NCBI RefSeq assembly: GCF_000146505.1
Contig: NC_017448.1
Span: forward strand, 3,750,001 to 3,782,000
DNA length: 32,000 bases
Reading direction: 5' to 3'
From: Fibrobacter succinogenes subsp. succinogenes S85
Lineage (GTDB): Bacteria; Fibrobacterota; Fibrobacteria; Fibrobacterales; Fibrobacteraceae
Positions 10,910 through 31,580 of the stretch are shown piece after piece. The translations under genes were made by a program, and so were the position numbers. How positions within the stretch are numbered: the stretch's first letter is position 1; each line of letters starts with the position of its first letter. Below the pieces are notes generated by a model. It was given only the letters and a program-made list of their open reading frames with translations, did not search any database and was not told where the DNA came from.

Positions 10910-10918
10910 CTATTTTTT

Positions 10919-13011: not shown

Positions 13012-13015
13012 ATGA

Positions 13016-13972: not shown

Positions 13973-14036
13973 TACACATCCTTACCTAAGAGCTCTTTCA
14001 TTCAATTTCACATATTTCGTACAACGTTTACTTTTT

Positions 14037-15038: not shown

Positions 15039-16156
15039 ACCATCTTATTGATTATTCCTACATAACTCTGAATAATCTTAATCACTTTCGTACTTACATT
15101 TGTGTCAGTATAAGCAGGAACATCAACAGAGCAATCTCCATTGGCGTGCATAGAAACAGCTAAGTCAACAGCTTGAAGAACCTGTTCCGTTGTTATACTT
15201 CCTATTGTAAAGACGCCTTTATCCACAGCTTCAGGGCGTTCCGTACTCGTCCTTATTGAAACTGCCGGAAATTTGAAGAAGGCTCCTTCTTCAGGAATTG
15301 TTCCGCTATCCGACACAACGCAAAAGGCATTTTGCTGCAACTTGTTATAGTCAAAAAATCCCAATGGTTTGTGTTGAATAACTCGATTGTCAAATTTGAA
15401 GTTTCTTGCATCAATGTATTTTTTACTTCTTGGATGGCAAGAATAAAGAATTGGCAAGTCGTAAGTTTCTGCCATTGCATTCACTGCATTCATCAAGCTA
15501 AAGAAATTTTGTTCGATGTCGATGTTTTCTTCACGATGCGCTGATAACAAAATATATTTTCCTGCTTTTAAACCTAACTTTTCAAGAATTGAGCTATTCT
15601 CTATTCTATCACGACACTTGCTAAGTACTTCAGCCATCGGAGAACCAACTACATATGTATACTCCGATTTTACACCACTATCAAGAATATAGCGTCGAGC
15701 ATGTTCAGAATAACATAGGTTTATATCGCTTGTTACATCAACGATTCTTCTAATAACTTCTTCCGGGAGGTTTTCGTCTTTACAACGATTGCCTGCTTCC
15801 ATATGAAATACCGGTATTTTTAAACGCTTTGCGGAAATCACGCAAAGGCAAGAATTTGTATCACCTAATACAATCAAAGCATCTGGTTTTACCTCTTGCA
15901 TCAGCTCATAGGACTTCGAAATTACATTGCCCATGGTTTGGCCGAGGTTTTCTCCAACAACTCCCAAATAATAATCAGGCTCGCGTAAACCTAAATCTTC
16001 AAAGAAAACCTTATTCAATTCATAATCATAATTCTGTCCGGTATGTACAAGAATTTGATCAAAATATTTATCTGCTTTTTTGATTATTTCGGACACTTTG
16101 ATGATTTCTGGGCGGGTTCCCACAATAGTCATCAATCGAAGTTTTTTTACACTCAT
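15026..16156 (-). CDS. Non-hydrolysing UDP-N-acetylglucosamine 2-epimerase family (FnlC/WbvD/CapG type), copy 1
   Basis: The 376-aa ORF has LMTIVGTRPEIIKVSEIIKK, HTGQNYDYELNKVFFEDL, VLGDTNS and HMEAGNRC. It is clearly paralogous to the ORF at 30396-31580. Confidence 0.85.
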   Translation of the reverse strand: MSVKKLRLMTIVGTRPEIIKVSEIIKKADKYFDQILVHTGQNYDYELNKVFFEDLGLREPDYYLGVVGENLGQTMGNVISKSYELMQEVKPDALIVLGDTNSCLCVISAKRLKIPVFHMEAGNRCKDENLPEEVIRRIVDVTSDINLCYSEHARRYILDSGVKSEYTYVVGSPMAEVLSKCRDRIENSSILEKLGLKAGKYILLSAHREENIDIEQNFFSLMNAVNAMAETYDLPILYSCHPRSKKYIDARNFKFDNRVIQHKPLGFFDYNKLQQNAFCVVSDSGTIPEEGAFFKFPAVSIRTSTERPEAVDKGVFTIGSITTEQVLQAVDLAVSMHANGDCSVDVPAYTDTNVSTKVIKIIQSYVGIINKMVWKK

Positions 16157-16180
16157 GAAAAATCCTCTCTAAAACGCTTG

Positions 16181-17035
16181 TTACAAACCATAATGAGGAT
16201 ACAAAGTCTTATGTATTCTCATCCAATCAGCCAATTCTGCAATCATTTGCTCATAATCAGGAATTTTATAGCCAAAATCCCAGCGAGTTCTTTTTAACGA
16301 TTTGTCCGCAGCCATTTTGTCTACAGGATTTATTTTAATCTTTTCAACTCTGATATACCTGTTGAATAAGCCTAGAAGATCGCATTTGGATATGCTAGTA
16401 TCAGGAACCATATTGTATAGCCCATGAGCTTTTTCTTTTGCAGCGAATTCCATTGTTTTGGCTAGTTGTAGGGTTGTTTGTCCTGTCCACATAGCTTTTG
16501 TGAACCCACACACTTCACCGTGTTGCTGCATAAACCAATTCAAAAGCCCTATTCCATTAGGGTCAATGTCAGGACCAACTATGGAATTTCGTAGCGTAAT
16601 GTTCTTTTCGTCCTCAATTTCACCAAGAGCTTTGGAACGATCGTAAAATGTGACCCCATCCCTAACGTCGTCTTCTGTATATTGACCTCGCTTGCCGCTA
16701 AATACACAATCTGTGCTCATGTGGATTACTTGGGTGTCTGAACCCTCTGTAAATTGAGCCAGTTGATGTGGTAAAAATCCATTTAAATAAGCAGCACTTG
16801 CTTTATTGTTTTCTGCAAATTGATTTAAAATGCCAATGCAGTTGATAACACTATCAAACTTGTTTACACCAATAACTTCCTTGATAAGGGTTGCATTTGT
16901 TGCATCGCCTACAACAGTATCAATGAATTTGGATTTTGATCTAGCAAATCCAAGAACATCGTGACCCCGTTCCTTCAAATAAAGGCAGATTATGTGGCCT
17001 GCCATGCCATTGCAACCGAGAATCAAGAACTTCAT
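16181..17035 (-). CDS. SDR-family RmlD-like 4-reductase (WbvR-like; inferred UDP-2-acetamido-2,6-dideoxy-L-hexos-4-ulose reductase)
   Basis: The 284-aa ORF has the Rossmann N-terminus MKFLILGCNGMAGHIICLYLKERGHDV. Its size and lack of a cupin domain distinguish it from the CapF/FnlB-type reductase at 29191-30396. It sits between the dehydratase and 2-epimerase genes. Confidence 0.55.
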   Translation of the reverse strand: MKFLILGCNGMAGHIICLYLKERGHDVLGFARSKSKFIDTVVGDATNATLIKEVIGVNKFDSVINCIGILNQFAENNKASAAYLNGFLPHQLAQFTEGSDTQVIHMSTDCVFSGKRGQYTEDDVRDGVTFYDRSKALGEIEDEKNITLRNSIVGPDIDPNGIGLLNWFMQQHGEVCGFTKAMWTGQTTLQLAKTMEFAAKEKAHGLYNMVPDTSISKCDLLGLFNRYIRVEKIKINPVDKMAADKSLKRTRWDFGYKIPDYEQMIAELADWMRIHKTLYPHYGL

Positions 17036-17047
17036 TAATTTAAATCC

Positions 17048-18088
17048 CTATTTTTGAATCTTTAACTCTTCTTGAACATAATCAGTCGTAAGGAGCTTTT
17101 TAATAATTCCTTCGACATCCAAGCGAATTGTATTATGGCTGGTGTAGGCTTCATCGGCTTGTGTTAAGACCTGTCCTTTGATAAAGAACTTGTCATAATT
17201 CAAGTCTCGATTATCTGCAGACACTCGGAAATAATTTCCCATATCTTCACTTCTTAAGCGTTCTTCAGAAGTAAGAAGCGTTTCGTAAAGTTTTTCGCCA
17301 TGACGCGTGCCGATAATTCTTGTTCCGGTATCTCCGAAAAGCTGTTGAACAGCCTTCGCCAAGTCTCCAATTGTACTTGCATCGGCTTTTTGAACAAAAA
17401 GATCTCCTGGATTGGCATGCTCAAACGCAAATTGAACCAAGTCGACAGCTTCGTCAAGGTTCATCAAAAAACGTGTCATGTCAGGATTTGTAATTGTAAT
17501 TGGGTTTCCCGCTCTAATTTGGTCAACAAACAGAGGTATTACAGACCCTCTTGAGCACATGACATTTCCATATCGAGTACAGCATATCACTGTATTTCCA
17601 CGTTCCGCAGCTACACGAGCATTCGCGGTAATGACATGTTCCATCATCGCTTTAGAAATACCCATTGCATTAATCGGGTATGCAGCTTTATCGGTACTAA
17701 GGCAAACAACTCTCTTTACGCCTGCTTCAATTGCAGCGTGAAGCATGTTATCAGTTCCTTCAACATTAGTTTTGACGGCCTGCATTGGGAAAAATTCGCA
17801 AGATGGCACTTGTTTGAGAGCAGCCGCATGAAATATATAGTCGACTCCAGGCATAGCATCTTTGATGGATCGATAATCACGAACATCGCCAATATAGAAC
17901 TTGACTTTTGCTGCGTAGTCAGGGTGTTTGGCTTGAAGCTCATGGCGCATATCATCTTGTTTTTTCTCGTCACGAGAGAAAATACGAATCTGACCAATAT
18001 CCGTTTCTAGGAAATGCTTCAAAACAGTGTTTCCAAAGCTTCCTGTTCCACCAGTAATTAACAGTGTTGCTCCATTGAAATTCGACAT
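17048..18088 (-). CDS. UDP-N-acetylglucosamine 4,6-dehydratase/5-epimerase (inverting; FnlA/CapE/WbjB/WbvB family), copy 1
   Basis: The 346-aa ORF reads LLITGGTGSFGNTVLKHFLETDIGQIRIFSRDEKKQDDMRHEL...YIGDVRD...TDKAAYPINAMGISKAMME, which is highly characteristic of the family. Confidence 0.9.
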   Translation of the reverse strand: MSNFNGATLLITGGTGSFGNTVLKHFLETDIGQIRIFSRDEKKQDDMRHELQAKHPDYAAKVKFYIGDVRDYRSIKDAMPGVDYIFHAAALKQVPSCEFFPMQAVKTNVEGTDNMLHAAIEAGVKRVVCLSTDKAAYPINAMGISKAMMEHVITANARVAAERGNTVICCTRYGNVMCSRGSVIPLFVDQIRAGNPITITNPDMTRFLMNLDEAVDLVQFAFEHANPGDLFVQKADASTIGDLAKAVQQLFGDTGTRIIGTRHGEKLYETLLTSEERLRSEDMGNYFRVSADNRDLNYDKFFIKGQVLTQADEAYTSHNTIRLDVEGIIKKLLTTDYVQEELKIQK

Positions 18089-19320: not shown

Positions 19321-20199
19321 TTATCTCTCCGTCTTCTCAATAGCCTCTTGCAGGCTGAATTTCTGGTAGGGTTCCTTGTACACACTCATGGCTTGGTCGT
19401 AGGCCAGGTTGCCAAAAGCCTTGTTCACGAGGCCAGTGGCGTGGCTCATGAGTTTGAGCGCCCAGCCGAATCCGGGGATGAGCACGCAGCACTTGTTATG
19501 AGCCTTGGCAATGAGCGAGATAACCTCGCTGGTGTTGCTGTACTGCGGATTTTGTGGCCAAAAGGTGCCATGTTCGCCGTTTTCAATCATCAGGCGTACG
19601 AATTCCACCAAGTTTCCGATGTAGAGCATGCTGCGCTTGTTTTCGACTTTCGGGAATGCGGGCAGTTTGCGGGCAAGCTTGCTGAGCAGTGGGTAGTTAC
19701 CCTTGCTCCCCTTGCCGAATATCATGGGCGGGCGAAGAATCACCACCTTGAAGGTGTCGCAGTCCAGCGGGCGGATGCCGTTTTCAGCCAGAACCTTGCT
19801 GTCGCCGTAACAATTTGCCGGGTTTACTGGGGTGTCGCACGTGATGAATTTTGGTTTACCGATGGGGGCGCTGTCGCCGTACACGATGGCGCTGCTCATG
19901 AATATGAACTGTTTAACGCCAGCGTCCTTCGCTTTCTTGGCGCATTTCACTGTGAGGTCGGTATTTACAGCGTAGTAGAGTTTCGCACGTTCTTCGCTGA
20001 TTTTACCGTTATCGCTATGGGCGATTCCTGCCACGTGGTAAACAGAGTCGTACTTGCTAAAATCAAAGCTACGCCAGGCGTCACCAATCATGTCGAGTGT
20101 ATCAACTTGGTACTTGCCCGAAAATTCAGGTTGTGTGAGGTAATTGGCAAAGGAGGTGCCGATGTAGCTGTTCGCGCCTGTAATGAGGATGTGGATCAT
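19321..20199 (-). CDS. NAD-dependent epimerase/dehydratase (SDR) family protein
   Basis: The 292-aa ORF has the Rossmann N-terminus ILITGANSYIGTSFANYL and a YGDSK catalytic-type motif. An ATGA overlap links it to the upstream sugar transferase gene. Confidence 0.75.
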   Translation of the reverse strand: MIHILITGANSYIGTSFANYLTQPEFSGKYQVDTLDMIGDAWRSFDFSKYDSVYHVAGIAHSDNGKISEERAKLYYAVNTDLTVKCAKKAKDAGVKQFIFMSSAIVYGDSAPIGKPKFITCDTPVNPANCYGDSKVLAENGIRPLDCDTFKVVILRPPMIFGKGSKGNYPLLSKLARKLPAFPKVENKRSMLYIGNLVEFVRLMIENGEHGTFWPQNPQYSNTSEVISLIAKAHNKCCVLIPGFGWALKLMSHATGLVNKAFGNLAYDQAMSVYKEPYQKFSLQEAIEKTER

Positions 20200-20831
20200 T
20201 GGCGAGCCTCCTGCTCATGCTTGTGGATTTCACCGGTACCGCCTTCTACGACACCGTCACTCTTGAGCACGCTGATAAACGTGCCAAAGAAGCACTTGCA
20301 ATCAAACAAAAAGCTCTGGCGCTTTACGTATTCACCGTCTAGTGCCGCCTTCACAGGAATTTCAAGTTCATCACGACCGTTAATCTGAGCCCAGCCGGTC
20401 AGGCCTACGGGAACGTCATTTGCACCATACTTGTCACGCTCTTCAATCAAGTCGTACTGGTTCCACAGCGCCGGACGCGGGCCGATGATGCTCATGGTCC
20501 CTTCAAAAATGTTGAACATCTGCGGGAGTTCATCAAGGCTCGTCTTGCGGAGGAATCCGCCCACCTTGGTAATCCACTTCTTGGGGTCGCTCAATTCGTG
20601 CGTCGGGGCGTCTTTGGGCGTATCGGTACGCATGGTGCGGAACTTGTAGATGTTAAAATGCTTCTTGTGCAAACCCACGCGTTTTTGCTTGAAGAGTACA
20701 GGACCCTTGCTATCGAGCTTGATGGCGATAGCGATTACAAGCATCGGGATTGCAAGTACGATGATGCCAAAACCGGAAAGGACGATATCAAAAAGTCGCT
20801 TAAAAAAGAGTGTATAGGGAGTCTTATGCAC
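20196..20831 (-). CDS. Initiating phosphoglycosyl transferase (small monotopic 'bacterial sugar transferase', PglC/WbaP-C-terminal type)
   Basis: The 211-aa ORF reads KRLFDIVLSGFGIIVLAIPMLVIAIAIKLDSKGPVLFKQKRVGLHKKHFNIYKFRTM...DELPQMFNIFEGTMSIIGPRP, which is the hallmark of the family. Confidence 0.9.
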   Translation of the reverse strand: MHKTPYTLFFKRLFDIVLSGFGIIVLAIPMLVIAIAIKLDSKGPVLFKQKRVGLHKKHFNIYKFRTMRTDTPKDAPTHELSDPKKWITKVGGFLRKTSLDELPQMFNIFEGTMSIIGPRPALWNQYDLIEERDKYGANDVPVGLTGWAQINGRDELEIPVKAALDGEYVKRQSFLFDCKCFFGTFISVLKSDGVVEGGTGEIHKHEQEARQ

Positions 20832-21342
20832 GATAGGTCTCCTGAGCCAAAATGTGCGTACCAGCCGGGACCACAGCGAGTGTGTTCACGACGGCGTTGC
20901 AGTCTACATGGCAGAATTCACCGACAGTCGCATTATGGCGGATTACAGCTCCGCTAGCGATAAAAGAAGCCTGTTTGATTACCGCTCCAGTTTGCACAGT
21001 AGCATTCGGTTCCACGCAGCAGCCCGCTTCGAGTTGTGCAGACGGGCTCACGTACGCCGTGGGGTGAACAAGAGTCGCCTGGGTAAAACTGTTTTGCTGT
21101 AGTTGCTCGGTAAGCTTGCGACGAAGTGCCGGATTGCCGATGGCCACAAAGCCAAATTTGAACTGCTCCGCGAATTTCGGGAGATCAGCCGTTGTGCCGA
21201 TTATGTCAGTACCGTCTAAGGTGTTAAACGAGTCGTCGAGGAACGCGATGCGGCCAAAAACGCCCATGGCTTCGGCAATTTCCTTCGCCATGACGCCATA
21301 CTGACCTGCGCCCAGAATAAGCAGATTATTCTGCGAGAGCAC
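20824..21342 (-). CDS. NeuD/PglD-family sugar N/O-acetyltransferase (left-handed beta-helix)
   Basis: The 172-aa ORF has a GTG start, an N-terminal Rossmann-like LLILGAGQYGVMAKEIA and C-terminal hexapeptide repeats (VHPTAYVSPSAQLEAGCCVEPNATVQTGAVI...). It is the first gene of the minus-strand operon. Confidence 0.7.
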   Translation of the reverse strand: MLSQNNLLILGAGQYGVMAKEIAEAMGVFGRIAFLDDSFNTLDGTDIIGTTADLPKFAEQFKFGFVAIGNPALRRKLTEQLQQNSFTQATLVHPTAYVSPSAQLEAGCCVEPNATVQTGAVIKQASFIASGAVIRHNATVGEFCHVDCNAVVNTLAVVPAGTHILAQETYRA

Positions 21343-21343
21343 T

Positions 21344-21370
21344 TACCGCAACCTCGGGGTAGTTGCGGTA
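21344..21370 (-). promoter_or_regulatory. 9-bp stem hairpin (TACCGCAAC, 9-nt loop, GTTGCGGTA) directly abutting the GTG start of the first operon gene. The GAGG Shine-Dalgarno-like element sits at the loop/stem junction.
   Basis: Read directly from the sequence: 21344-21352 is the reverse complement of 21362-21370. On the mRNA (minus) strand the 3' arm ends 1 nt before the GTG at 21342-21340. Confidence 0.35.
21356..21370 (+). repeat. Left copy of a perfect 15-bp direct repeat, GGGGTAGTTGCGGTA
   Basis: This is an exact match to 28049-28063 on the same strand. It lies about 14 bp outside the start of the minus-strand operon. Confidence 0.9.
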
Positions 21371-21436
21371 GGGGAGGGCGAGACTGCTGCAGAACCTCAT
21401 TTTTTCTGAAATTGTATCGCAACCATAAAAAAGAGC

Positions 21437-21465
21437 TTGACAAAATCCAAAATTTAGTGTACGTT
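21437..21465 (+). promoter_or_regulatory. Possible sigma70-like promoter (TTGACA, 17-nt spacer, TACGTT) facing the Panacea-like remnant
   Basis: Motif match only. The promoter grammar of the host is unknown. Confidence 0.2.
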
Positions 21466-21559: not shown

Positions 21560-21872
21560 ATGGAAAATGTCGCTCTATGCGTCCAATTCGCTGCACCTGC
21601 CACTCCCCGAAAACTCCATTACTGAACTCAAGCCGGTTTTTGACTCGGTGTTCTCCCGGTATGCGGGGCGCAGTAGCTGGAGTCTTAGTGACCTGACGCA
21701 TGGTGAAACATCATGGCAGAATGCCCGCAAGGGGCTTGCGCGAGATGCTGCTGGCAACGTTCCTATGTCCATAGACGATATCAGGCACGATGCCGAATAC
21801 ATCAAACTGCGACGCTGTGTGATGCCTGCAGTCCGCTCTTTGTTCAAGGAAAACGCTTTTGAAAATCACTGA
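21560..21872 (+). pseudogene. Decayed Panacea (DUF4065, SocA/PanA-like antitoxin) domain gene
   Basis: The 101-aa ORF (21567-21872) contains ...VFSRYAGRSSWSLSDLTHGETSWQNARKG..., which resembles only the C-terminal half of DUF4065. The N-terminal KLQKLLYY-type half is missing. A strong SD plus ATG (AAGGAGctaaaATG at 21560) opens a different frame that stops after 21 codons, which suggests a frameshift or deletion. Confidence 0.4.
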
Positions 21873-21944
21873 TTCGCAAAAAAAAAGTTGTTGATTCTCT
21901 CGTATGCGAGAGGTTGCATAGCAAGCCTCAAAACAAGGATATCG

Positions 21945-22081
21945 TCCAAAAGTTTTGTAACAAACGCAACGATGGTATCGCAAAGACTTTGCGAGAAAAC
22001 GTTCTTGCCAAAAAGCGGTTCGCCCTTACGGAACTGTTCCTTGGCCTTCGCCATTACGGAGTTCAGTTCTTCGTTTGTCAT
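21945..22081 (-). mobile_element. N-terminal remnant of an IS256-family (mutator-type) transposase gene
   Basis: In the ORF 21866-22087, MTNEELNSVMAKAKEQFRKGEPLFGKNVFSQSLCDTIVAFV resembles the conserved IS256-family N-terminus (...LKSGKPLFGKDGAFAPLLESILNAAL...). Similarity is lost after about 45 codons and there is no catalytic DDE region. The coordinates of the remnant are approximate. Confidence 0.4.
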
Positions 22082-22248
22082 TGTCACAATCCTTTCCTAC
22101 ATTATAGTAAGGTTTTGGGTTATTGGCTGTGGATTGTGACACCGTTTAATTTACAGCCTCCCGTCACTTCGTGATAAACTTAAATTACCCATTAGGCTCA
22201 ACAGGCAAGACTAGTAAACTTCGCATATCCCATATTCTGTAGGGCTTA

Positions 22249-22302: not shown

Positions 22303-25300
22303 ATGGAGTCTCAAATGATAGATTACGACACCCTCCAAAGCGACGAAAGTTTAATCAACGCATATTTAGTCAAAAGTAGCTCTAGAACATATAAAGAATA
22401 CAATGAACTTTCCTGGGATTCTGCATCATTCTTTGCCAAAATTATTCTCGCATCCCAAAACAATGTCGCTTTAGATGCTGCCACAATACAAACAGAAATT
22501 AATTTGTTTAATGAAAATAATCTCACTAACGTTTCTTTAAACTATCTTTTGGGCAAATTTTGGCTAAGGAGTATTGCTGGGCAAATAAAAATTTCTGGTG
22601 CAATACTTCACCTATTAACCGATAATAATGGATTCAAACTTCCAAAAGAAATTGACAATAAAGAATTGCTTGACAATTTTGGTTTCATGGAATTTCTTGC
22701 CGAGAAATACAGATACGAAGATTCTAGGTCCTGCGAAATCCCCTTACAACGCTTTAATTCCATTTATACTCAATTCAAGGATTTCTATCCTAAAGCGCCA
22801 CCTTTGGAATCTCTTTTGCAAGATTTTAAAATAACCAAAAAAAATGACAAATACATTTTTAACTTATGGCAAACAGTAGGTAAAGTCAATCAAACATCAT
22901 TATCTGCTCAAATTCTGTACTCATTACTCCAATCAAGAGACTTTCATAATGATACCGAAATAATAAAAGAATGGTTGAAAGCAACTCAATTTATTTTTAA
23001 ACCTGAAGTATATCAAAACCTTCCTGAATGGGAAAAAACACGTTACCTAATAGCTGCAAAAAATATATTATCAACGGAACAAGATTTAGAGGACGGTTTT
23101 GAAGATGAAAAAATCTTTCTAAATGAAGATTTGGCCCATTACTCATTCCTTTCAGCTAAAGACATCGTGTTAAAAACAGGTGTTTCCAACTACTCAATCA
23201 AATATAACGAACTGTTTATCAAATGGTTGAAGTTTTATTCCAAACGAAAATGGAAAATTTCCTTTTTAGATTTCAACATTCGTGAAGATTATGTGAAATT
23301 ATTACAATCATTACTAATCAATTCAATACAAGAACCCGATGCCTTTGATGTAACAGAATTATTTGAAAATAGACCATATTTACTCAATCAAACCATTTTT
23401 TATTTAAACAGGGTTAATCCAACGCGACTTCTCGCATATATTGATAATGATAAATATGGTTTAATCTTCTTTTGTTCATTCCTGTTCTTATGTGAAGATC
23501 AATTCTATAAGCAAAAGCCTAATGAGCATATTCCATTCGCAATTATTGAAAAATATGCGCAAACATTCGTCCAAAAAAATTTAATTCCTAAAAAAAATTT
23601 TAAACATGCTGCTTTATTTTTGATGCTTTTAGTCAAAGGAATCTATGATAGTAGATGGTCGGAGTTGTATAAAATTGTATATGAAAAAATAATAATAGAG
23701 ATTCCATTCCAGAGTCCTTCTTCAATATTCTTTAAGACGGCTTTAGACGTCTACAACAACTATCAACAACCTATTTGGGAAGAACGTGTTAGACAAATAA
23801 AAATATGCGCATTTCACTATCTGTTCTTTTTTCTAAATCGGACAGAAGCTCAAGAAAAAGAGGAATGTTTTTCTTTAATAAATACTTTATATAATGATTC
23901 CGTATTTCAAAATGATTCTTTCAGTTATTGGAGCGAATGGAATGAAATAGATAAACTTGATTGGAGTACTTTCTTTAATTGGTTGTTTAAGCACAACAAA
24001 CTTAGTTCTTTTTGCCAAGAAATCAAAAACCATTTAAATTATGACCCTAACGAGCAGAATTTTGATAAACAAATGTCTAGTCCAAAGAAACTCCGTTTCC
24101 ACTTGAAGATACTCTGCTCTGTATATTGTGAATGGAGAAAGCATGAAGATAACGATAAAATCAACTTACTAGAATCAAACATCGTTCAAATTCTAAACAG
24201 TTGTTTTGTTAATAAACCCGAAAAACAAAAATTCGCCATTTTTGAAGCTGTACATGAGTCAAATTTCGGCGCTGATTTTAACAACGAATTGTTCCCTCTT
24301 GTGATATCAACAATAAAATTATTTGATAAATCAAACCGAAAAAAGATTCTTGTTGCTCTCTCTATGGGCGATGACCCTAGACTGCAAATCAAGGCATATA
24401 ATCATCTTCCAAACACAGAAGACAAAGATTACATAAAGGATTCTATAAACCTAACAGAAGACATTGATTATCACTTCAACACATTTGATGACTTTACCTC
24501 TTTTTTACGCGATTTGTACAATTCTCATCTTAACGATGATTTTGCCGACATGCTTCTAAAGAAATTAGATAATCAGGTCAGGCAACGTGTAAAAGACCAA
24601 GTTGCGGCACCTTTTGTGCTAGATACTGAAATTCTAAAAATCTACAATTTATATTGGAAAAAAGATGTAGAAAACTTAATTCAATACAAATGCCTATACG
24701 AAGACTATTCTGGACGCTATAAAGAATCCCTTATTGATCTAAAAAACGAACAATATTACTTGATTTCATTACTAAAAATAGAACAGAAGGCTTACAACGA
24801 AGCTTGGCTCTATATAAACCGAATAAAAGAAGGGAATTCAACAAAATTAAAATACAAGGCTGCTCGCTTGTATTTAAAATTTCACACACTTCAAGGAAAA
24901 GAGGTGCTTGCCCCTCTATTACAAGAAATCCAAAAAATTGAGAAGACTGAAACCAGACAACCGCAAGATTGGTACTACTTGTACCTTACAAAAGTAGCAC
25001 TATACTCCAGCATGGACAAAGAAGAAGATCTTTTAAATCTATATCATTCTTTAGGAAGTAATCAAAGCGAACTTCAACTGGTAAAACCCATTGTTGAATA
25101 CTTTATAAGCCGTCAAAATTGGCAAATGGCTATTCAAACGTTCAACACAATTAAAGTCTCTAATGAAGAAAAAGAGGAGTACAATTCTCTAAAATCGAAA
25201 ATATCTTGGGCAGATGAAATTCCAATTCTAAAAAACAGTTACCTTCAAATTCTTGGCCTGCCCAATGACTATCGTTTCAAAGTTTTACCACCATCCATCA

Positions 25301-25896
25301 GCAAACATAGCAATAATCCAGGTCTTTTTGTAGTCTATGACTTATGTACTGCGTTAAACATTCTTTTGAAGAAAATAAAAGCAGTCTCCGCCAGCTCTTC
25401 ACACATGTCGGAAGATTACAAAACAGATCTATTACAATCTATTCTAAATGGTAGACTTTCCATGCTCGGCTACAAATTTGAGGATCAAAACAGAAGCGGT
25501 CAATCGGCAGGAAAAGGTAAGCAAGCTGGCGAACTTGACCTATCCATGGATTTAGGTTGTAGTACGGTTGTTCTAGAGGCCATTAATTGCAACGGATGGA
25601 ATGCCGATTTAAAAAAACATATAGAAAAGGTATTCAACTACGACCCGTCAAGACATATTTTGATAAATCTAATGTACTATGAAGGGAAAAACGACGAATT
25701 TTTCTCAAAATGGGATGTTATAAAAAAATACGTAACCGACAACACTAAGGTCAATTACCCGCTAAATTATGGTATCATAGATCAACAAGAAATTTCAAAT
25801 ATAACGCAGAACAATAGCATAAAGGTATTGAAGTGTGTACACGAAAACAATTTGGAATTTTACCACATATTCGCAAATTTTAGCTACTATACTTAA
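22303..25896 (+). CDS. Orphan 1197-aa protein of unknown function: a long helical N-terminal region, TPR-like repeats (about aa 815-955) and a C-terminal PD-(D/E)xK-like nuclease-fold module (about aa 1037-1125)
   Basis: This is an uninterrupted 3.6-kb ORF in the most AT-rich part of the window. I see no Walker A/B, HNH, DEAD or SIR2/TIR-like motif by eye. The C-terminus reads EDYKTDLLQSILNGRLSMLGYKFEDQNRSG...GELDLSMDLGCSTVVLEAIN, which resembles the E...SE..G.GR.D(n)ExK core of PDDEXK_9-type nucleases. Confidence 0.85.
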   Translation: MESQMIDYDTLQSDESLINAYLVKSSSRTYKEYNELSWDSASFFAKIILASQNNVALDAATIQTEINLFNENNLTNVSLNYLLGKFWLRSIAGQIKISGAILHLLTDNNGFKLPKEIDNKELLDNFGFMEFLAEKYRYEDSRSCEIPLQRFNSIYTQFKDFYPKAPPLESLLQDFKITKKNDKYIFNLWQTVGKVNQTSLSAQILYSLLQSRDFHNDTEIIKEWLKATQFIFKPEVYQNLPEWEKTRYLIAAKNILSTEQDLEDGFEDEKIFLNEDLAHYSFLSAKDIVLKTGVSNYSIKYNELFIKWLKFYSKRKWKISFLDFNIREDYVKLLQSLLINSIQEPDAFDVTELFENRPYLLNQTIFYLNRVNPTRLLAYIDNDKYGLIFFCSFLFLCEDQFYKQKPNEHIPFAIIEKYAQTFVQKNLIPKKNFKHAALFLMLLVKGIYDSRWSELYKIVYEKIIIEIPFQSPSSIFFKTALDVYNNYQQPIWEERVRQIKICAFHYLFFFLNRTEAQEKEECFSLINTLYNDSVFQNDSFSYWSEWNEIDKLDWSTFFNWLFKHNKLSSFCQEIKNHLNYDPNEQNFDKQMSSPKKLRFHLKILCSVYCEWRKHEDNDKINLLESNIVQILNSCFVNKPEKQKFAIFEAVHESNFGADFNNELFPLVISTIKLFDKSNRKKILVALSMGDDPRLQIKAYNHLPNTEDKDYIKDSINLTEDIDYHFNTFDDFTSFLRDLYNSHLNDDFADMLLKKLDNQVRQRVKDQVAAPFVLDTEILKIYNLYWKKDVENLIQYKCLYEDYSGRYKESLIDLKNEQYYLISLLKIEQKAYNEAWLYINRIKEGNSTKLKYKAARLYLKFHTLQGKEVLAPLLQEIQKIEKTETRQPQDWYYLYLTKVALYSSMDKEEDLLNLYHSLGSNQSELQLVKPIVEYFISRQNWQMAIQTFNTIKVSNEEKEEYNSLKSKISWADEIPILKNSYLQILGLPNDYRFKVLPPSISKHSNNPGLFVVYDLCTALNILLKKIKAVSASSSHMSEDYKTDLLQSILNGRLSMLGYKFEDQNRSGQSAGKGKQAGELDLSMDLGCSTVVLEAINCNGWNADLKKHIEKVFNYDPSRHILINLMYYEGKNDEFFSKWDVIKKYVTDNTKVNYPLNYGIIDQQEISNITQNNSIKVLKCVHENNLEFYHIFANFSYYT

Positions 25897-25992: not shown

Positions 25993-26598
25993 CTATATCA
26001 ATGCATATTCAACAACCGTTTTAAAACCAGCATCAACTAATGCTGATCGGATGTCGTTGGGCGTCAATCCCATTCCAAAATCGTGAACATTTTTTAAAAT
26101 TCTAGCACGCCTTGATTTCAATTCGGAATTATTTAGATTAAAGGTCTTTATCGTGTAATCAGCCCTTTGGGCTTCTTGTTTTGACAATCCGGGAGCAACG
26201 ATTATTTCTCCATTTTCCATATAGGTAAAATATCGTTCAACATTGTTTTCGTTTGGAGAAATTAGCAAATCGTAATCACGTTTGTTGGTGACAATACTGT
26301 CTTTATATTTGGCCCCATAATGTTCGCTTAGACCGTCTACAAATAAATTGTTCCAATCAAAAGTTCGCTTAGGGAATAAACTTCTCTTGTAGAAATGATC
26401 TATATGAGATTTTGGAGAGATTGGCTCTTCTGTGTAGGCACTAACGCCACCTTGTTCTTTGATAAGAGCTAATTTTATTTGGCTATAGAGGTCTGGAAAT
26501 TTCGTCTGTTTATGCAGATCTTCCCATGTTCTAGGTTTTTCGCGATAAACATAATCTGTAAAAGAATTTAGAGAGGCGTTTTTCTTGACAGAGATCAT
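25993..26598 (-). CDS. ptuB: PtuB-like HNH-fold endonuclease (TIGR02646-type), a variant lacking the zinc-binding cysteines
   Basis: The 201-aa ORF starts in an ATGA overlap with the upstream ATPase stop. Its core reads SAYTEEPISPKSHIDHFYKRSLFP...WNNLFVDGL...YGAKYK. That aligns with the TIGR02646 pattern CxYCE...hIDHfxP...WxNL..sC..CN..K, with His and Asn retained and the cysteines replaced. Confidence 0.65.
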   Translation of the reverse strand: MISVKKNASLNSFTDYVYREKPRTWEDLHKQTKFPDLYSQIKLALIKEQGGVSAYTEEPISPKSHIDHFYKRSLFPKRTFDWNNLFVDGLSEHYGAKYKDSIVTNKRDYDLLISPNENNVERYFTYMENGEIIVAPGLSKQEAQRADYTIKTFNLNNSELKSRRARILKNVHDFGMGLTPNDIRSALVDAGFKTVVEYALI

Positions 26599-27878
26599 AC
26601 AAGCCCCTTCTCTATACGCTTTTCTTGCAAGGAAATTTTAAAAAATTCTGGGTCAGCGGGGTTTATATTGTTTTTGAGCCAGGATAGAATCTCTTGATAC
26701 TTATCTGATTTACAATCACCTTTTTTTAGCAAAATCCAAAGTTCATCTAATTTCTTTTGAACATCGTCATTTCGTAAGCTTCTCAACTGAAATACATCAT
26801 TTAATATCAAATCGACCGTCTGACCGTACTGGTTTCGCTTTGTAGGGACCGCTTCGCCATTGGACAATGCTATAAGCATGTCTTTTTCAGAGTTTTTTAG
26901 ATTGGTAATGATATGCGGTGAATGCGTTGTCAAAAAGAATTGCACCTTTGGGAATGTTTTTTTGAGATGGTCTATAACCCCCATTTGCCATTCGGGGTGC
27001 AAGTGCAACTCAATTTCGTCTATCATCACAACCGCCGTTTTTTTGAGCGGATCTTCTGCATTAGGATTCGCCATCGCCATTTTGCGGGCTATGTCGCAAA
27101 CTAACGCAATGTATGACTTTTCGCCATCGGACAATTGACTAAAATTAAATGATTCGCCTCTTTTCTCAACAACAAAAGAAAGAGGATCGCGTTTAACACG
27201 AAACTTTTGGTAACCCGGCAAAAGATTTTTGATGGCCGAACGGACTGCTGTGAGTTGAACATCGCCTTTGAATTTTGTGCCGTGTTCGCGATACAGCTCG
27301 TTTTCTAGATCTTCGCGTTCACGGAACCACAAGAAAAATGAATGGAAATTAACACTATTGTTTAAGCCACTGTCAAAGGCATCGAGTGGACTGAGAGCGT
27401 GTTTTTTACGAACACGCAACGGGACGGAATCAACAACTCTGTTGACTGAATAAAAATCAACCAATGGCAGATTGTGATTTTTCCCATCTATGAAGCGTTC
27501 TATCTTGGAATCGGCATAATTATTTAGTTCAGCCCTACTAGCTTGTCGTTCTATATTCTTTCTATATGATGTACGTTTTTTAAACAGCGACCATCGAACT
27601 ACTTGATCTTGTTCTCCTATCTTTTCTACAACTTCAATTTCAATAAAGGCATATGGTTCACCATTTGTAATATCGCAATCGCTTAAAGACAATCCCTTAC
27701 CTTTGGGGCTTTTTAGTCGGGCAACATACCATGAGAAAAGAAATTGCATTGCAACGAGCACTGTCGTTTTGCCGGCACCGTTGATTCCTGCAAAGACGAC
27801 CATCTTTGAATTTGAAAAATCTAGATCAAGATTTTTTATTCCACGAAAGTTCTCGATTCTAAGTTTCTTTACTCTCAT
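26595..27878 (-). CDS. ptuA: PtuA-like ABC/SMC-type ATPase (AAA_15/AAA_21 class), the Septu ATPase component
   Basis: The ORF has MRVKKLRIENFRGIKNLDLDF, Walker A GINGAGKTT, the signature-like LSDGEKS, Walker B VVMIDEIELHLHP and the H-loop TTHSP. I place the start at the internal ATG (27878). The family N-terminus begins there, so the 30-codon extension in the ORF track (to 27968) looks spurious. Confidence 0.75.
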   Translation of the reverse strand: MRVKKLRIENFRGIKNLDLDFSNSKMVVFAGINGAGKTTVLVAMQFLFSWYVARLKSPKGKGLSLSDCDITNGEPYAFIEIEVVEKIGEQDQVVRWSLFKKRTSYRKNIERQASRAELNNYADSKIERFIDGKNHNLPLVDFYSVNRVVDSVPLRVRKKHALSPLDAFDSGLNNSVNFHSFFLWFREREDLENELYREHGTKFKGDVQLTAVRSAIKNLLPGYQKFRVKRDPLSFVVEKRGESFNFSQLSDGEKSYIALVCDIARKMAMANPNAEDPLKKTAVVMIDEIELHLHPEWQMGVIDHLKKTFPKVQFFLTTHSPHIITNLKNSEKDMLIALSNGEAVPTKRNQYGQTVDLILNDVFQLRSLRNDDVQKKLDELWILLKKGDCKSDKYQEILSWLKNNINPADPEFFKISLQEKRIEKGLV

Positions 27879-27966
27879 AATATAAACCTGCTTTATATGA
27901 GGAGAAATATATAAATATCTTGCTAAGGATGATGATTTCATTTTGTAGCACTTATACACTCTTAAC

Positions 27967-27972
27967 ATTATA
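27967..27972 (-). promoter_or_regulatory. Perfect TATAAT hexamer on the minus strand about 90 nt upstream of ptuA; a possible -10 element
   Basis: The plus strand reads ATTATA at 27967-27972. There is no convincing -35 element. Motif match only. Confidence 0.2.
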
Positions 27973-28048: not shown

Positions 28049-28063
28049 GGGGTAGTTGCGGTA
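28049..28063 (+). repeat. Right copy of the perfect 15-bp direct repeat, GGGGTAGTTGCGGTA
   Basis: This is an exact match to 21356-21370. It lies at the AT-rich to GC-rich transition, 76 bp upstream of the fnlA-like ATG at 28139. Confidence 0.9.
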
Positions 28064-28171
28064 CATGCTCTTTTCTTTCCACAATGTCCTCTCATTTTTA
28101 CTACATTTTGCTTGCAAAAACAATAAAAAGGACTATTTATGTCAAGCTCCATTTTCTGTGACTAGACTCTC

Positions 28172-29191
28172 TTGATTACCGGCGGTACGGGTAGTTTCGG
28201 CAATGCTGTGCTCAACCGCTTCCTCCAGACCGACATCGGCGAAATTCGCATTTTCAGCCGCGACGAGAAGAAGCAGGATGACATGCGCCACGAATTCCAG
28301 GCCAAGATGCCGGAAGCGGCCGACAAGATCAAGTTCTACATCGGCGATGTGCGCGACCTCCAGAGTGTCAAGAATGCGATGCACGGGGTGGACTACATTT
28401 TCCATGCGGCTGCCCTCAAGCAGGTGCCGAGCTGCGAATTTTTCCCGCTCGAAGCTGTCAAGACCAACGTGTTCGGTACGGACAATGTGCTGACAGCCGC
28501 CATCGAAGAAGGTGTCAAGAATGTGGTTTGCTTGAGCACGGACAAGGCTGCTTATCCGGTGAATGCGATGGGTACGAGCAAGGCCATGATGGAAAAGGTC
28601 ATCGTGGCAAAGTCCCGCACGGTGAGCCCGGAAAAGACGAAGATTTGCTGCACGCGTTACGGCAATGTGATGTGCAGCCGCGGTTCCGTGATTCCGCTGT
28701 GGATTGACCAGATTCGCGCAGGTCCGCCGATTACCATTACCGAAGGCTCCATGACGCGCTTTATCATGAGTCTCGACGAAGCTGTGGACTTGGTGCTGTT
28801 TGCATTCGAAAACGGTGTCTCGGGCGACATTTTGGTGCAGAAGGCTCCGGCTTGCACTATCCAAACTCAGGCTGAAGCTGTGTGCGAACTTTTCGGCGGC
28901 GACAAGAATGCTATCAAGGTCATCGGTATCCGTCACGGCGAAAAAATGTACGAAACGCTCCTGACAAACGAAGAATGCGCCCATGCGATTGACCTCGGCA
29001 ACTTCTACCGTGTGCCTTGCGACAAGCGCGGCTTGAACTACGACAAGTACTTCAACAAGGGCGATACGGAACGCAACACGCTCACCGAGTTCAACTCCAG
29101 CAATACCAAGCTCTTGAATATTGAACAGGTGAAGCAGAAACTCCTCACGCTCCAGTACATCCGCGAAGAACTCGCCAAGGCGGGTAAGTAA
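28172..29191 (+). CDS. fnlA: UDP-N-acetylglucosamine 4,6-dehydratase/5-epimerase (FnlA/CapE family), copy 2. The native ATG appears to be at 28139, followed by an in-frame TAG at codon 9.
   Basis: The ORF reads ITGGTGSFGNAVLNRFLQTDIGEIRIFSRDEKKQDDMRHEF...YIGDVRD...TDKAAYPVNAMGTSKAMME. The track's start is a TTG placed directly on the Rossmann glycine loop. In frame, 33 nt upstream, there is AAGGA, 6 nt, then ATG TCA AGC TCC ATT TTC TGT GAC TAG ACT CTC TTG. Confidence 0.85.
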   Translation: MITGGTGSFGNAVLNRFLQTDIGEIRIFSRDEKKQDDMRHEFQAKMPEAADKIKFYIGDVRDLQSVKNAMHGVDYIFHAAALKQVPSCEFFPLEAVKTNVFGTDNVLTAAIEEGVKNVVCLSTDKAAYPVNAMGTSKAMMEKVIVAKSRTVSPEKTKICCTRYGNVMCSRGSVIPLWIDQIRAGPPITITEGSMTRFIMSLDEAVDLVLFAFENGVSGDILVQKAPACTIQTQAEAVCELFGGDKNAIKVIGIRHGEKMYETLLTNEECAHAIDLGNFYRVPCDKRGLNYDKYFNKGDTERNTLTEFNSSNTKLLNIEQVKQKLLTLQYIREELAKAGK

Positions 29192-30396
29192 TGAATATAT
29201 TGGTGACTGGCGCAAAGGGGTTTGTGGGTCGCAACCTGGTGGCTGCGCTCAAGAACATCCGCGATGGCAAGGACCGCACGCGTGGTGATTTGATCATTGG
29301 CGATATCTACGAATACGATATTGACTCGACTTTGGCGGACCTTGATGACGCCTGCATGCACGCGGACTTCGTGTTCAATCTTGCTGGCGTGAACCGTCCG
29401 AAAGATAATAGCGAATTCATGGCGGGCAACTTCGGTTTTGCAAGTGACCTTTTGGAAACGCTCAAGCGCCACAAGAATTTGTGTCCGGTGATGCTCAGCA
29501 GCAGCATCCAGGCGACGCTTGCGGGCCGTTTTGGCAACAGCGAATATGGCCGTAGCAAAAAAGCGGGCGAGGAGCTGTTCTTTGAATACAGCCAAGAAAC
29601 TGGCGCGAAGGTTTTGGTGTACCGTTTTCCGAACTTGTTCGGTAAGTGGTGCCGCCCGAACTACAACAGTGCCGTGGCTACGTTCTGCAACAACATCGCG
29701 AACGACTTGCCGATTCAGGTGAACGACCCGAACGTCGATATGGAACTCCTCTACATCGATGACCTCGTGGAAGAGATGATTGCCGCCTTGAAGGGCGGGG
29801 AACATCATGCCGAATTTGACGGCGTTGAAACGGTCTTGACGGAAAATGGTCGCTATTGCGCAGTGCCGACGGTCCATAAGATTAAGCTCGGTGCCATTGT
29901 GGATTTGCTCAACAAGTTCCACGATCAGCCGAATACGCTCGTGATGCCGGAAATTCCGAACAACAGTTTCGAGAAAAAACTTTACTCCACCTACCTGAGC
30001 TACTTGCCCAAGGAAAAGGTCTCGTTCCCGCTCAAGATGAACGTTGATGCCCGCGGCAGCTTCACCGAACTTTTGAAGACGGTGAATTGCGGACAGTTCA
30101 GCGTGAACGTGTCCAAGCCGGGAATTACCAAGGGTGAACACTGGCACCACAGCAAGTGGGAATTCTTCATTGTGGTGAGCGGTCGCGCCCTGATTCAGGA
30201 ACGCAAGGTCGGCACGGATGAAATTATGGAATTCGAAGTGAGCGGTGATAAGATTGAAGCGGTTCACATGCTCCCGGGTTATACGCACAACATCATCAAC
30301 CTCTCGCAGACCGAAAACCTCGTGACTGTCATGTGGGCGAACGAATCCTTTGACCCGAACCACCCGGATACCTTCGGGGAGAAAGTGGTAAAATAA
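29191..30396 (+). CDS. fnlB: CapF/FnlB-type bifunctional reductase/epimerase (N-terminal SDR plus C-terminal cupin)
   Basis: The 401-aa ORF has MNILVTGAKGFVGRNL, FNLAGVNRP, LSSSIQA, YRFPNLFGKWCRPNYNSAVATFC and IQVNDPNV, which closely match the S. aureus CapF pattern. A TAATG overlap links it to fnlA. Confidence 0.85.
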   Translation: MNILVTGAKGFVGRNLVAALKNIRDGKDRTRGDLIIGDIYEYDIDSTLADLDDACMHADFVFNLAGVNRPKDNSEFMAGNFGFASDLLETLKRHKNLCPVMLSSSIQATLAGRFGNSEYGRSKKAGEELFFEYSQETGAKVLVYRFPNLFGKWCRPNYNSAVATFCNNIANDLPIQVNDPNVDMELLYIDDLVEEMIAALKGGEHHAEFDGVETVLTENGRYCAVPTVHKIKLGAIVDLLNKFHDQPNTLVMPEIPNNSFEKKLYSTYLSYLPKEKVSFPLKMNVDARGSFTELLKTVNCGQFSVNVSKPGITKGEHWHHSKWEFFIVVSGRALIQERKVGTDEIMEFEVSGDKIEAVHMLPGYTHNIINLSQTENLVTVMWANESFDPNHPDTFGEKVVK

Positions 30397-31580
30397 TGCA
30401 GATTAAAACTGATTACTCTGGTGTGAAATTCGCCGATAACGGCAAGCTGAAACTTTTGATTATCGTGGGTACGCGCCCCGAAATCATCCGCCTCGCGGCA
30501 GTCATCAACAAGTGCCGCAAGTACTTTGACTGCGTTCTCGCGCACACCGGCCAGAACTACGATTACAACCTGAACGGCGTGTTCTTCAAGGACTTGAGCC
30601 TCAAGGATCCTGAAGTTTACATGGATGCCGTCGGTGATGACCTCGGAGCAACCGTGGGTAACATCATCAATTGCAGCTACAAGCTCATGGTCGCTTGCAA
30701 ACCGGACGCATTGCTGATTCTCGGTGATACCAACAGCTGCCTTTCTGCCATTGCCGCAAAGCGCCTGCACATTCCGATTTTCCACATGGAGGCAGGCAAC
30801 CGCTGTAAGGACGAATGCCTGCCCGAAGAGACCAACCGCCGCATCGTGGACATCATCAGCGATGTGAACATGGCCTACTCCGAACATGCCCGCCGTTACC
30901 TCGCTGACTGCGGCTTGCCCAAGGAACGCACGTACGTGACCGGTAGCCCCATGGCCGAAGTCCTGCACAAGAACCTCGCGCAAATCGAAGCGAGCGACAT
31001 TCACGCCCGCCTCGGCCTCGAAAAGGGCAAGTACATTTTGCTCAGCGCCCACCGCGAAGAAAACATCGACACCGAAAAGAACTTCACGAGCCTCTTTACC
31101 GCCATCAACAAAATGGCCGAAAAGTACGACATGCCGATTCTGTACAGCTGCCACCCGCGCAGCCGTAACCGCCTTGCCGCATCGGGATTCAAGCTCGACA
31201 AGCGCGTGATTCAGCACGAACCGCTCGGATTCCACGACTACAACTGCTTGCAGATGAACGCATTCGCCGTCGTAAGCGACAGCGGCACGCTCCCCGAAGA
31301 AAGCTCCTTCTTCACAAGTGTCGGCCACCCGTTCCCGGCAATCTGCATCCGCACCAGCACGGAACGCCCCGAAGCGCTTGACAAGGCCTGCTTCTTCATC
31401 GCCGGCATCGACGAAAAGTCCCTCTTGCAGGCCGTCGACACCGCCGTCACGATGAACTCCAACGGCGACTACGGCATTCCTGTGCCGGACTACATCGAAG
31501 AAAACGTCTCGACCAAGGTCGTGAAGATCATCCAGAGCTACACCGGCATCGTCAACAAGATGGTGTGGAGAAAGAACTAG
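30396..31580 (+). CDS. fnlC: Non-hydrolysing UDP-2-acetamido-2,6-dideoxy-hexose/UDP-GlcNAc 2-epimerase (FnlC/CapG type), copy 2
   Basis: The 394-aa ORF has LLIIVGTRPEIIRLAAVINK, HTGQNYDYNLNGVFFKDL, ILGDTNS and HMEAGNRC. A TAATG overlap links it to the preceding gene. Confidence 0.9.
   Translation: MQIKTDYSGVKFADNGKLKLLIIVGTRPEIIRLAAVINKCRKYFDCVLAHTGQNYDYNLNGVFFKDLSLKDPEVYMDAVGDDLGATVGNIINCSYKLMVACKPDALLILGDTNSCLSAIAAKRLHIPIFHMEAGNRCKDECLPEETNRRIVDIISDVNMAYSEHARRYLADCGLPKERTYVTGSPMAEVLHKNLAQIEASDIHARLGLEKGKYILLSAHREENIDTEKNFTSLFTAINKMAEKYDMPILYSCHPRSRNRLAASGFKLDKRVIQHEPLGFHDYNCLQMNAFAVVSDSGTLPEESSFFTSVGHPFPAICIRTSTERPEALDKACFFIAGIDEKSLLQAVDTAVTMNSNGDYGIPVPDYIEENVSTKVVKIIQSYTGIVNKMVWRKN

Follow-up and report, generated by a model that had tools for sequence, protein, structure and literature searches.

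FSU_3258 of Fibrobacter succinogenes S85, a member of an undescribed family of large solenoid proteins, is a candidate single-gene defence system

What is encoded by the longest open reading frame (ORF) of an AT-rich block that lies between polysaccharide genes of Fibrobacter succinogenes subsp. succinogenes S85, and could its product be a defence protein? The ORF (22303-25896, plus strand) is part of a 32,000-nucleotide (nt) stretch of contig NC_017448.1, positions 3,750,001 to 3,782,000, which we refer to in its entirety as the window. Its product is identical to FSU_3258, a protein whose database label is hypothetical. A sequence-only reading of the window had taken it for an orphan in which a repeat-based sensor is fused to a nuclease, and had proposed an undescribed single-gene defence or effector system. 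Our analysis partly confirms the observations of that reading and partly supports its interpretation, and leaves a well-founded candidate. Specifically, we put at about 55% the probability that FSU_3258 belongs to an undescribed family of stand-alone defence-island proteins and is a candidate single-gene defence system, and we infer that it would function as a sensor-plus-nuclease protein independent of nucleoside triphosphate hydrolysis by an NTPase.

With respect to the first part of this answer, an exhaustive profile search, in which all counts are of sequence-cluster representatives, recovered 406 family members at E<=1e-3, 209 at E<=1e-10 and 83 at E<=1e-30. All 406 are without annotation, and FSU_3258 is therefore unannotated rather than an orphan, the latter term being true only in the sense that annotation is lacking. 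Family members are mostly 1200-1400 amino acids (aa) long, with most at 1260-1370 aa; they align confidently to the window protein from about residue 540 through the C-terminal end, and their N-termini are alignable as well (121 sequences). The few named members are each called 'hypothetical protein' and derive from Bacteroidota or unclassified metagenome-assembled genomes (MAGs). A word-index search added almost nothing outside the close Fibrobacter set, giving only eight further clusters, all ~1200 aa long and with identities of 43-77%, whose sources are rumen-type metagenomes plus one Fibrobacter MAG, while one extra locus came from a genome-collection scan and two from a metagenome scan. 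No match to the locus was found in E. coli genomes. A literature search returned no mention of FSU_3258, Fisuc_2690, WP_015732381, D9S923, ADL25809 or ACX76273, and a keyword search returned papers on Upx, Shedu, Schlafen and STAND proteins, none of which describes the FSU_3258 architecture.

The family also stands apart from known families in the libraries that we searched. The window protein matched nothing at E<=0.01 in Pfam, PADLOC-DB 2.0.0, NCBIfam or PHROGs, and seven distant members gave nothing above the curated cut-off in Pfam or PADLOC. No PADLOC system profile (Shedu, Dsr1/2, Upx, PD-T4/T7/Lambda, PDC-S and others) was matched at E<=0.01 by the window protein or by these seven, and PDB sequences gave no significant match to the single protein, the whole-family profile or the C-terminal-domain profile. 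Likewise, 38 C-terminal domains scanned singly against Pfam pointed to no recurrent family; the family alignment itself is too diverse for pattern-based scans. The proposal that FSU_3258 corresponds to no named defence family is thus upheld across PADLOC 2.0.0, Pfam, NCBIfam and PHROGs, and a confident match to a housekeeping or named defence family, sought in the same libraries and in PDB sequences, did not emerge. No signature of a P-loop, HNH, TIR, SIR2 or methyltransferase domain had been seen by eye in the window protein, and the four blank library scans and the missing Walker A motif bear this out. The N-terminus of the family consensus matches PF24406 nSTAND_NTPase4 below threshold (E 2.4e-4, 21.6 bits vs a cut-off of 27; window 22303-22600, aa ~57-87), which hints at a small domain common to STAND conflict systems, the NTPase itself being absent. 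Two other weak resemblances were considered and rejected. A HEPN/HepT match of the consensus (17.4 bits vs a cut-off of 23.5) was judged spurious because the domain concerned is alpha/beta rather than all-helical and has no conserved Rx4-6H motif, and the weak likeness of 'HENxLEFYHIF' to motif II of geminivirus Rep (E 0.06-0.29), suggestive of an HUH endonuclease, was set aside because the family motif has a single His.

In terms of genomic setting, we compared 14 independent contexts, the window included, and counted a defence system when it was known or candidate and lay within 10 kb. Such a system was present in 11 of the 14, a small sample assembled without a matched control, which is the answer to the question raised by the sequence-only reading of whether homologues neighbour defence genes. 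Under the operational definition reportedly given by Doron et al. in 2018, a defence-island family is one in which the majority of members lie near known defence genes; at 11 of 14, in a small sample with no matched control, the FSU_3258 family is a defence-island family in that sense.

The predicted structure gives this family a clear outline. An AlphaFold model built with 57 diverse homologues reached a pLDDT (predicted local distance difference test) of 87.1 and a pTM (predicted template modelling score) of 0.72, as compared with a pLDDT of 62 in an earlier run with nine sequences. In the model the protein has three parts, namely a helical N-terminal region with beta hairpins, an alpha-solenoid of ~650 residues and a C-terminal alpha/beta domain (Table 1). 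The earlier impression that the first ~800 residues are all-helical needs correcting for the beta hairpins near the N-terminus, which are possibly winged-helix-like. Across 121 sequences, W87, R89, W189, D261, E267, K270 and R327 are the N-terminal residues conserved family-wide, and W87 and R89 belong to the region of the first hairpin. A helix in the same region carries the motif D261-x5-E267-x2-K270-x3-D274 (23083-23124, aa 261-274), both acidic and basic and distant from the C-terminal domain; conservation across the family is 89-98% for D261, E267 and K270, and at position 274 Asp is found in 80% of members and Asn in the window protein.

The alpha-solenoid that follows is proposed, from the model, to act as a sensor or scaffold. 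Foldseek, which had been suggested together with AlphaFold as a check, was run on the full-length model, and the result is dominated by the solenoid. Against the PDB it gave generic solenoid or tetratricopeptide repeat (TPR) proteins only (CTR9, Ski3, IFT-A and exportins; E 8e-5 to 1e-2, TM 0.1-0.3), and against BFVD only TPR, Sel1 and ankyrin repeat proteins. The TPR-type hairpins predicted by eye at about residues 815-955 were placed correctly: the family consensus comes close to threshold on TPR_14 (22.6 bits, cut-off 23.5) at window aa ~818-851, with TPR_19, TPR_2 and TPR_6 weaker, and helix pairs occupy this part of the model. TPR proteins of the PDB match weakly (E 0.2-1), and the window protein itself has no TPR match in the Pfam scan. 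With regard to an NTPase, the window protein has no Walker A motif (GxxxxGK[ST]), which is found in 7 of 121 relatives; there is no NTPase Pfam match, and the model contains no P-loop or alpha/beta NTPase domain. The confident model agrees with the earlier description of a repeat-rich helical body joined to an acid-rich C-terminal alpha/beta domain without an NTPase. Selection is uneven along the protein, as judged by the ratio of nonsynonymous to synonymous substitution rates (dN/dS) in a comparison with the 77%-identical homologue of locus L003 (Table 1). Constraint is strongest at the putative effector end and weakest in the TPR-like segment, a pattern that fits a sensor-effector immune protein.

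In the AlphaFold model the protein is helical to ~1055 and then follows the order alpha-beta-beta-alpha-beta: helix 1037-1055, strands 1080-1083 and 1088-1096, helix 1101-1112 and strand 1117-1126, with helix 1130-1144 and strands 1158-1163, 1173-1180 and 1184-1192 making up the rest. Among 121 full-length members, E1037, D1079 and H1106 are 100% conserved, followed by E1092 (99%), K1109 (98%), G1076 and H1188 (97% each), D1042 and Y1125 (96% each), Y1113 (95%) and H1180 (91%). A second alignment of 57 sequences shows E1037, D1079, E1092, H1106 and K1109 to be invariant. D1079 and E1092, both picked by eye in the sequence-only reading, are accordingly among the residues that are invariant or nearly so. 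The three acids, each at least 99% conserved, are arranged with E1037 on helix 1, D1079 at the start of a beta hairpin and E1092 in the next strand. An E on helix 1, a D starting strand 2 and an E in strand 3 is the classic arrangement of the restriction-endonuclease fold. Taken together, topology and motifs make it roughly two in three that the C-terminal domain is a PD-(D/E)xK nuclease, possibly a variant one. Of the fold that had been proposed, the E-D-E acids are found and much of the order of elements can be read in the model, in which the first core strand is weak; the lysine two residues beyond the last acid and matches to profiles are not found. H1106 and K1109, on the helix after the E1092 strand, are candidates to stand in for this lysine. 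The loop 1061-1076 has a pLDDT <50 at 1067-1073, yet its Q, R, G and S are 74-86% conserved; it may be flexible and may gate the site or bind substrate.

The same domain turns up in two other settings. A 218-aa ORF in a Bacteroidetes MAG (locus L023, 8001-8657; P0189) consists of the C-terminal domain alone in an ordinary gene neighbourhood and could be a remnant or a stand-alone domain, and in P0192, a 365-aa protein, the domain lies behind an unrelated N-terminus.

Several observations weigh against this picture of a defence protein with a nuclease effector. The canonical Lys two residues after E1092 is absent, position 1094 being Ile, Val or Leu in nine close homologues, and the core has a weak first beta strand, which shows up only in the poorer nine-sequence model at 1058-1060. 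Three of the contexts show no known defence gene, and the tally of 11 of 14 comes from few loci without a matched random-gene control. Finally, the PADLOC-DB 2.0.0 release dates from 2023, and systems named later lie outside its coverage.

The first of these points bears on the best-surviving alternative, in which the C-terminal domain is not a nuclease and is instead a ligand-binding domain or a different alpha/beta enzyme, for example a metal-dependent hydrolase that uses H1106, H1180 and H1188; the protein could then act as a scaffold or by another activity. The missing +2 lysine (position 1094 has no majority residue in the family consensus) is what such an alternative would lead one to expect, and three His and two Tyr at 90% conservation or above, with Y1113, Y1125, H1180 and H1188 lying just downstream of the putative site, are unusual for a plain PD-(D/E)xK site. 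No nuclease family was matched either: Pfam scans brought up no PDDEXK family, whether run with the whole protein, the seven distant members, the family consensus or the 38 C-terminal domains, and PDB profile searches gave no nuclease match to the family or to the C-terminal domain. The string 'Q-x-R-x-G...GExD...EA' may resemble PDDEXK_9, though Pfam gave no match. Nonetheless, the E-D-E pattern and the order of elements, here read from the topology of the model, are those of the restriction-endonuclease fold, and BamHI and BglII, bona fide PD-(D/E)xK members, replace the lysine. In addition, the BsuBI/PstI-type enzyme at locus L013 has a like 'D-x13-EA-hydrophobic' pattern, and an hhalign comparison with this enzyme pairs 'PD...LAEAV' with 'LD...VLEAI' in an alignment that is not significant (P 0.038, probability 1.4%). 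Since this score is not significant, we hold the nuclease as the best inference rather than as demonstrated membership of the superfamily, and we consider a non-nuclease domain rather unlikely.

A second alternative is that the protein is mobile-element cargo with a role other than defence, such as inter-element competition, plasmid or integrative and conjugative element (ICE) exclusion, addiction or the element's own DNA processing. Several homologues do lie on conjugative or mobilisable elements with relaxase, coupling protein and Tra genes, and the window copy sits within a segment bracketed by a 15-nt direct repeat. The exact repeat, GGGGTAGTTGCGGTA, occurs at 21356-21370 and 28049-28063 and at no other place in the window (0.01 expected by chance), patchy similarity reaches ~90 nt around each copy, and the copies look like insertion scars. 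That the repeat brackets the whole low-GC block, with similarity around the copies, supports an acquired insert, and the 6.7-kb segment is likely an acquired island; there is no integrase between the copies. The GC content is 0.325 in the ORF vs 0.522 (19321-21342) and 0.540 (28172-31580) in the flanking polysaccharide genes, so that the earlier hand counts (~32% vs 50-53%) were accurate; the claim that the ORF occupies the most AT-rich stretch was not, as window 9500-14500 is lower at 29.4% GC. The insert had also been described as carrying toxin-antitoxin and insertion sequence (IS) debris. The repeat and the drop in GC sustain the acquired insert; the toxin-antitoxin part comes down to a single sub-threshold resemblance of ORF 21567..21872 to the SocA_Panacea C-terminus (E 0.012), and the supposed IS debris, ORF 21866..22087 on the minus strand, had no match in the library scans. 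Against a cargo role of this kind, no terminal repeats flank the ORF itself, a result that also disposes of a transposon reading of the ORF; tblastn searches of plasmid and phage collections, made with two distant members as well as the window protein, found no homologue; and the neighbours are mostly defence genes rather than transfer genes. Activity against mobile elements would in any case count as defence. We regard a non-defence cargo role as distinctly unlikely.

A third alternative starts from the neighbours themselves. ABC-type AAA_15/AAA_21 ATPase systems are the commonest of these, lying within 10 kb in 8 of the 14 contexts, directly adjacent in the window and at L001, L006 and L020, and close at L021 (Table 1), and FSU_3258 might be an accessory or third component, a sensor or regulator, of such ATPase-plus-nuclease pairs (Septu, Gabija, AbiL-like and PD-T4-4-like). 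The pair in the window is a real Septu system by PADLOC and, as stated in the sequence-only reading, is convergent with the large ORF, the stop-to-stop gap being 96 nt. The ATPases, however, represent different families, with no orthology among them or to the window PtuA, and the orientation differs from locus to locus (convergent in the window and at L001, co-directional at L006 and L020). No such neighbour occurs at L007/8, L009-12, L013 or L015, and defence islands in general have ABC-ATPase-plus-nuclease systems among their most frequent components. A fixed partner gene was ruled out, none recurring among the immediate neighbours. The absence of any common neighbour family beyond these generic, non-orthologous ATPases argues for a self-contained single-gene module carried in defence islands or as ICE cargo, and it argues against a dedicated partner of Septu, which is a separate system from the large ORF. 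We regard an accessory role as very unlikely.

The last alternative, a spurious or decaying ORF within AT-rich foreign DNA, in which long ORFs arise more readily and for which every database entry reads 'hypothetical', has next to no chance of being right and is refuted by the family profile search (full-length homologues down to ~17% identity keep the invariant residues), by the confident AlphaFold model and by a whole-protein dN/dS of 0.11, besides the 1197 codons without a stop. FSU_3258 is a real gene under purifying selection. The ORF encodes 1197 aa plus a stop and is the longest in the window, as claimed, the runner-up encoding 620 aa. The RefSeq start is M5 (nt 22315), which gives 1193 aa, and M5 is the invariant first residue among close homologues, so the true start is likely this one.

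Table 1. Features of the FSU_3258 region, with dN/dS by segment and the settings of homologues (L numbers denote homologue loci; percentages after them are identities to the window protein)
Feature	Residues	Nucleotides	Strand	Description
Whole ORF		22303..25896	+	1197 aa; FSU_3258 / Fisuc_2690 / ADL25809.1 / WP_015732381.1 / UniProt D9S923
N-terminal region	1-330	22303..23292	+	Helices; beta hairpins 88-97, 144-147, 178-186 (AlphaFold)
Alpha-solenoid body	331-1003	23293..25311	+	Unbroken helical hairpins in the model; pLDDT mostly 85-96
TPR-like hairpins	807-966	24721..25200	+	Helix pairs in the model; least constrained segment (dN/dS 0.18, aa 801-1000)
C-terminal alpha/beta domain	1004-1197	25312..25893	+	Putative variant PD-(D/E)xK nuclease; most conserved part of the family
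Putative active-site codons		25411..25629	+	E1037 25411-25413; D1042; G1076-E-L-D1079, D at 25537-25539; E1092-A1093 25576-25581; H1106 25618-25620; K1109 25627-25629
Loop	1061-1076	25483..25530	+	Q1062, R1064, G1066, S1068 ... G1076; immediately precedes D1079
dN/dS vs L003 homologue	1-330			0.13
dN/dS vs L003 homologue	331-800			0.09
dN/dS vs L003 homologue	801-1000			0.18, highest of the four segments
dN/dS vs L003 homologue	1001-1197			0.06, lowest
PtuB		25993..26598	-	PADLOC PDLC00326, E 2e-79
PtuA		26595..27968	-	PADLOC PDLC00271, E 3e-137
Repeat-bracketed segment		21356..28063	.	6.7 kb; Panacea-like fragment, large ORF and Septu; low GC
ATPase-plus-nuclease neighbour, window		25993-27968		Septu
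ATPase-plus-nuclease neighbour, L001		13603-15706		AbiL-like
ATPase-plus-nuclease neighbour, L006		13855-15989		PD-T4-4-like
ATPase-plus-nuclease neighbour, L020		13833-17994		Gabija
ATPase-plus-nuclease neighbour, L021		4056-7690		Gabija
Context L001/2 (43%)				Inside type I restriction-modification (R-M) operon, hsdS and hsdR either side; convergent with AbiLi-like ATPase and TOPRIM-like gene
Context L003-5 (77%)				Divergent from PDC-S73 nSTAND3 protein; PDC-M29 ATPase pair 4 kb off
Context L006				Same strand, then PD-T4-4_A-like ATPase and small gene
Context L007/8				IS elements; 477-aa ORF of unknown type overlapping homologue start
Context L009-12				Alone, beside housekeeping genes
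Context L013				Directly after type II R-M pair
Context L015				After SIR2-pAgo (prokaryotic Argonaute) fusion (PADLOC E = 0) and PD-T4-6-like kinase
Context L016				Integrative element: PDC-M01, Ymh, RadC, relaxase
Context L017				Conjugative transposon: MukB/MksE (Wadjet-like) genes and Panacea protein
Context L019				OLD ATPase, two DUF4365 proteins, dynamin-like GTPase, two GmrSD genes, DUF3696 ATPase
Context L020				Bacteroidota-type conjugative transposon; helix-turn-helix gene, homologue, then GajA, GajB
Context L021				Gabija, caspase-like protein, DUF4238, HNH protein, UvrD-type helicase
Context L022				Two neighbours scanned: nothing recognisable

A number of further observations concern the surroundings of the gene and of its homologues. 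To the left of the island lie genes for a PglD-like acetyltransferase, a sugar transferase and an epimerase, and to its right fnlA-, fnlB- and fnlC-like genes. The window in fact contains two fnlA/fnlB/fnlC-like sets (Polysacc_synt_2, reductase and UDP-GlcNAc 2-epimerase) on opposite strands, of which that at 15026-18088 (minus) lies in low-GC DNA (~0.33-0.41 in sliding windows) and that at 28172-31580 (plus) has a GC of 0.54. The sequence GAGCTTGACAWAA is found at 21433-21445 (plus) and 28137-28149 (minus), one inverted copy ahead of each divergent polysaccharide operon, and may be a shared promoter or regulatory element. Within Septu, the PtuA ORF runs 30 codons upstream of the point at which all PADLOC PtuA models start matching (residue 31, MRVKKLRIENF...; window 27879-27968), and the true PtuA start is probably an internal Met.

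At L001 (4811-19161) the type I R-M operon is split, and the gap between hsdS and hsdR contains inserts unrelated to hsdM: a 495-aa protein (phrog_22717, E 2e-94), the FSU_3258 homologue and the AbiLi-like ATPase with its TOPRIM-like partner. The 477-aa ORF of L007 (8575-10008) and L008 (2230-3663) overlaps the start of a 48%-identical homologue by 8 nt; it has no Pfam, PADLOC or PHROG match and may be a lineage-specific operon partner. Lastly, at L015 (5051-9922) the SIR2-pAgo fusion, of 1057 aa, and the PD-T4-6-like kinase, a Ser/Thr kinase, stand immediately upstream of a distant family member, with ImuB and DnaE2 downstream.

Returning to FSU_3258 as a candidate single-gene defence protein, a mechanism can be outlined in which a phage protein or nucleic-acid structure would be sensed directly by the solenoid, either alone or together with the N-terminal hairpin domains. 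Ligand binding would relieve autoinhibition or drive assembly of the C-terminal metal-dependent nuclease, whose acidic triad (E from helix 1, D from the beginning of strand 2, E from strand 3) would bind Mg2+, with K1109 and H1106 of the next helix supplying the lysine missing after E1092. The released nuclease would cut phage DNA, host DNA or both, and no NTP hydrolysis would be involved, following the logic of Dsr2 or Shedu rather than that of Avs. A more far-reaching and tentative possibility is that the family constitutes a new class of NTPase-independent pattern-recognition nucleases, widespread on islands and conjugative elements of Bacteroidota and Fibrobacterota, in which a ~1000-residue solenoid and N-terminal hairpins would bind a phage component and, via the conserved loop 1061-1076, activate an atypical PD-(D/E)xK site where His and Lys of the next helix join the E-D-E acids. 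If so, FSU_3258 would be the founding example of the class.

If the defence role were confirmed, the known single-gene anti-phage systems would be joined by a family of ~400 sequence clusters. The family occurs in rumen and gut lineages (Fibrobacter and Bacteroidota), and screens built around E. coli and Bacillus give poor coverage of the defence repertoires of these lineages. Confirmation would further provide a second architecture, after Dsr2, in which a very large solenoid senses infection without an NTPase switch, here with the solenoid sensor coupled to a nuclease of unusual active-site layout. The confident model and the few invariant residues make the hypothesis directly testable.

Comparison with known systems helps to place the protein. 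Septu is a physical neighbour within the same acquired segment; FSU_3258 matches no Septu component in PADLOC, however, and Septu is absent beside most homologues. With the PD-(D/E)xK superfamily, for example enzymes of the BsuBI/PstI type, FSU_3258 shares the helix-1 Glu, the Asp that starts the hairpin, the Glu in the following strand and, as far as the model shows it, the order of elements. It differs in the hydrophobic residue at the +2 Lys position, in H1106 and K1109 on the next helix, in three extra C-terminal strands that bear the conserved H1180 and H1188, and in giving no significant profile or structure match. Avs and other STAND proteins are likewise found in defence islands and pair a nuclease-type effector with a sensor of the TPR or solenoid kind, whereas FSU_3258 lacks their defining NTPase (Walker A, P-loop fold and Pfam match alike), the only trace being the sub-threshold PF24406 match of the consensus N-terminus. 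Shedu (SduA, DUF4263) is a single-protein defence with a C-terminal PD-(D/E)xK nuclease under variable N-terminal sensor domains; FSU_3258 has no DUF4263 or PADLOC Shedu match, is ~3x longer, and has a solenoid body and a motif without the +2 lysine. Dsr2 is a single polypeptide of ~1000 aa without an NTPase, in which a large alpha-helical solenoid senses directly and is joined to an enzymatic effector. Its likeness to FSU_3258, drawn from the published Dsr2 structures, is an analogy of how the protein might work: a defence-island gene encoding a solenoid and an effector with no NTPase. The Dsr2 effector is an N-terminal SIR2 NADase, whereas the putative effector of FSU_3258 is C-terminal and nuclease-like, and FSU_3258 has no SIR2 or PADLOC Dsr match and no detectable sequence relationship to Dsr2. 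While a member of neither family, FSU_3258 would thus find its closest functional analogies in Dsr2 and Shedu.

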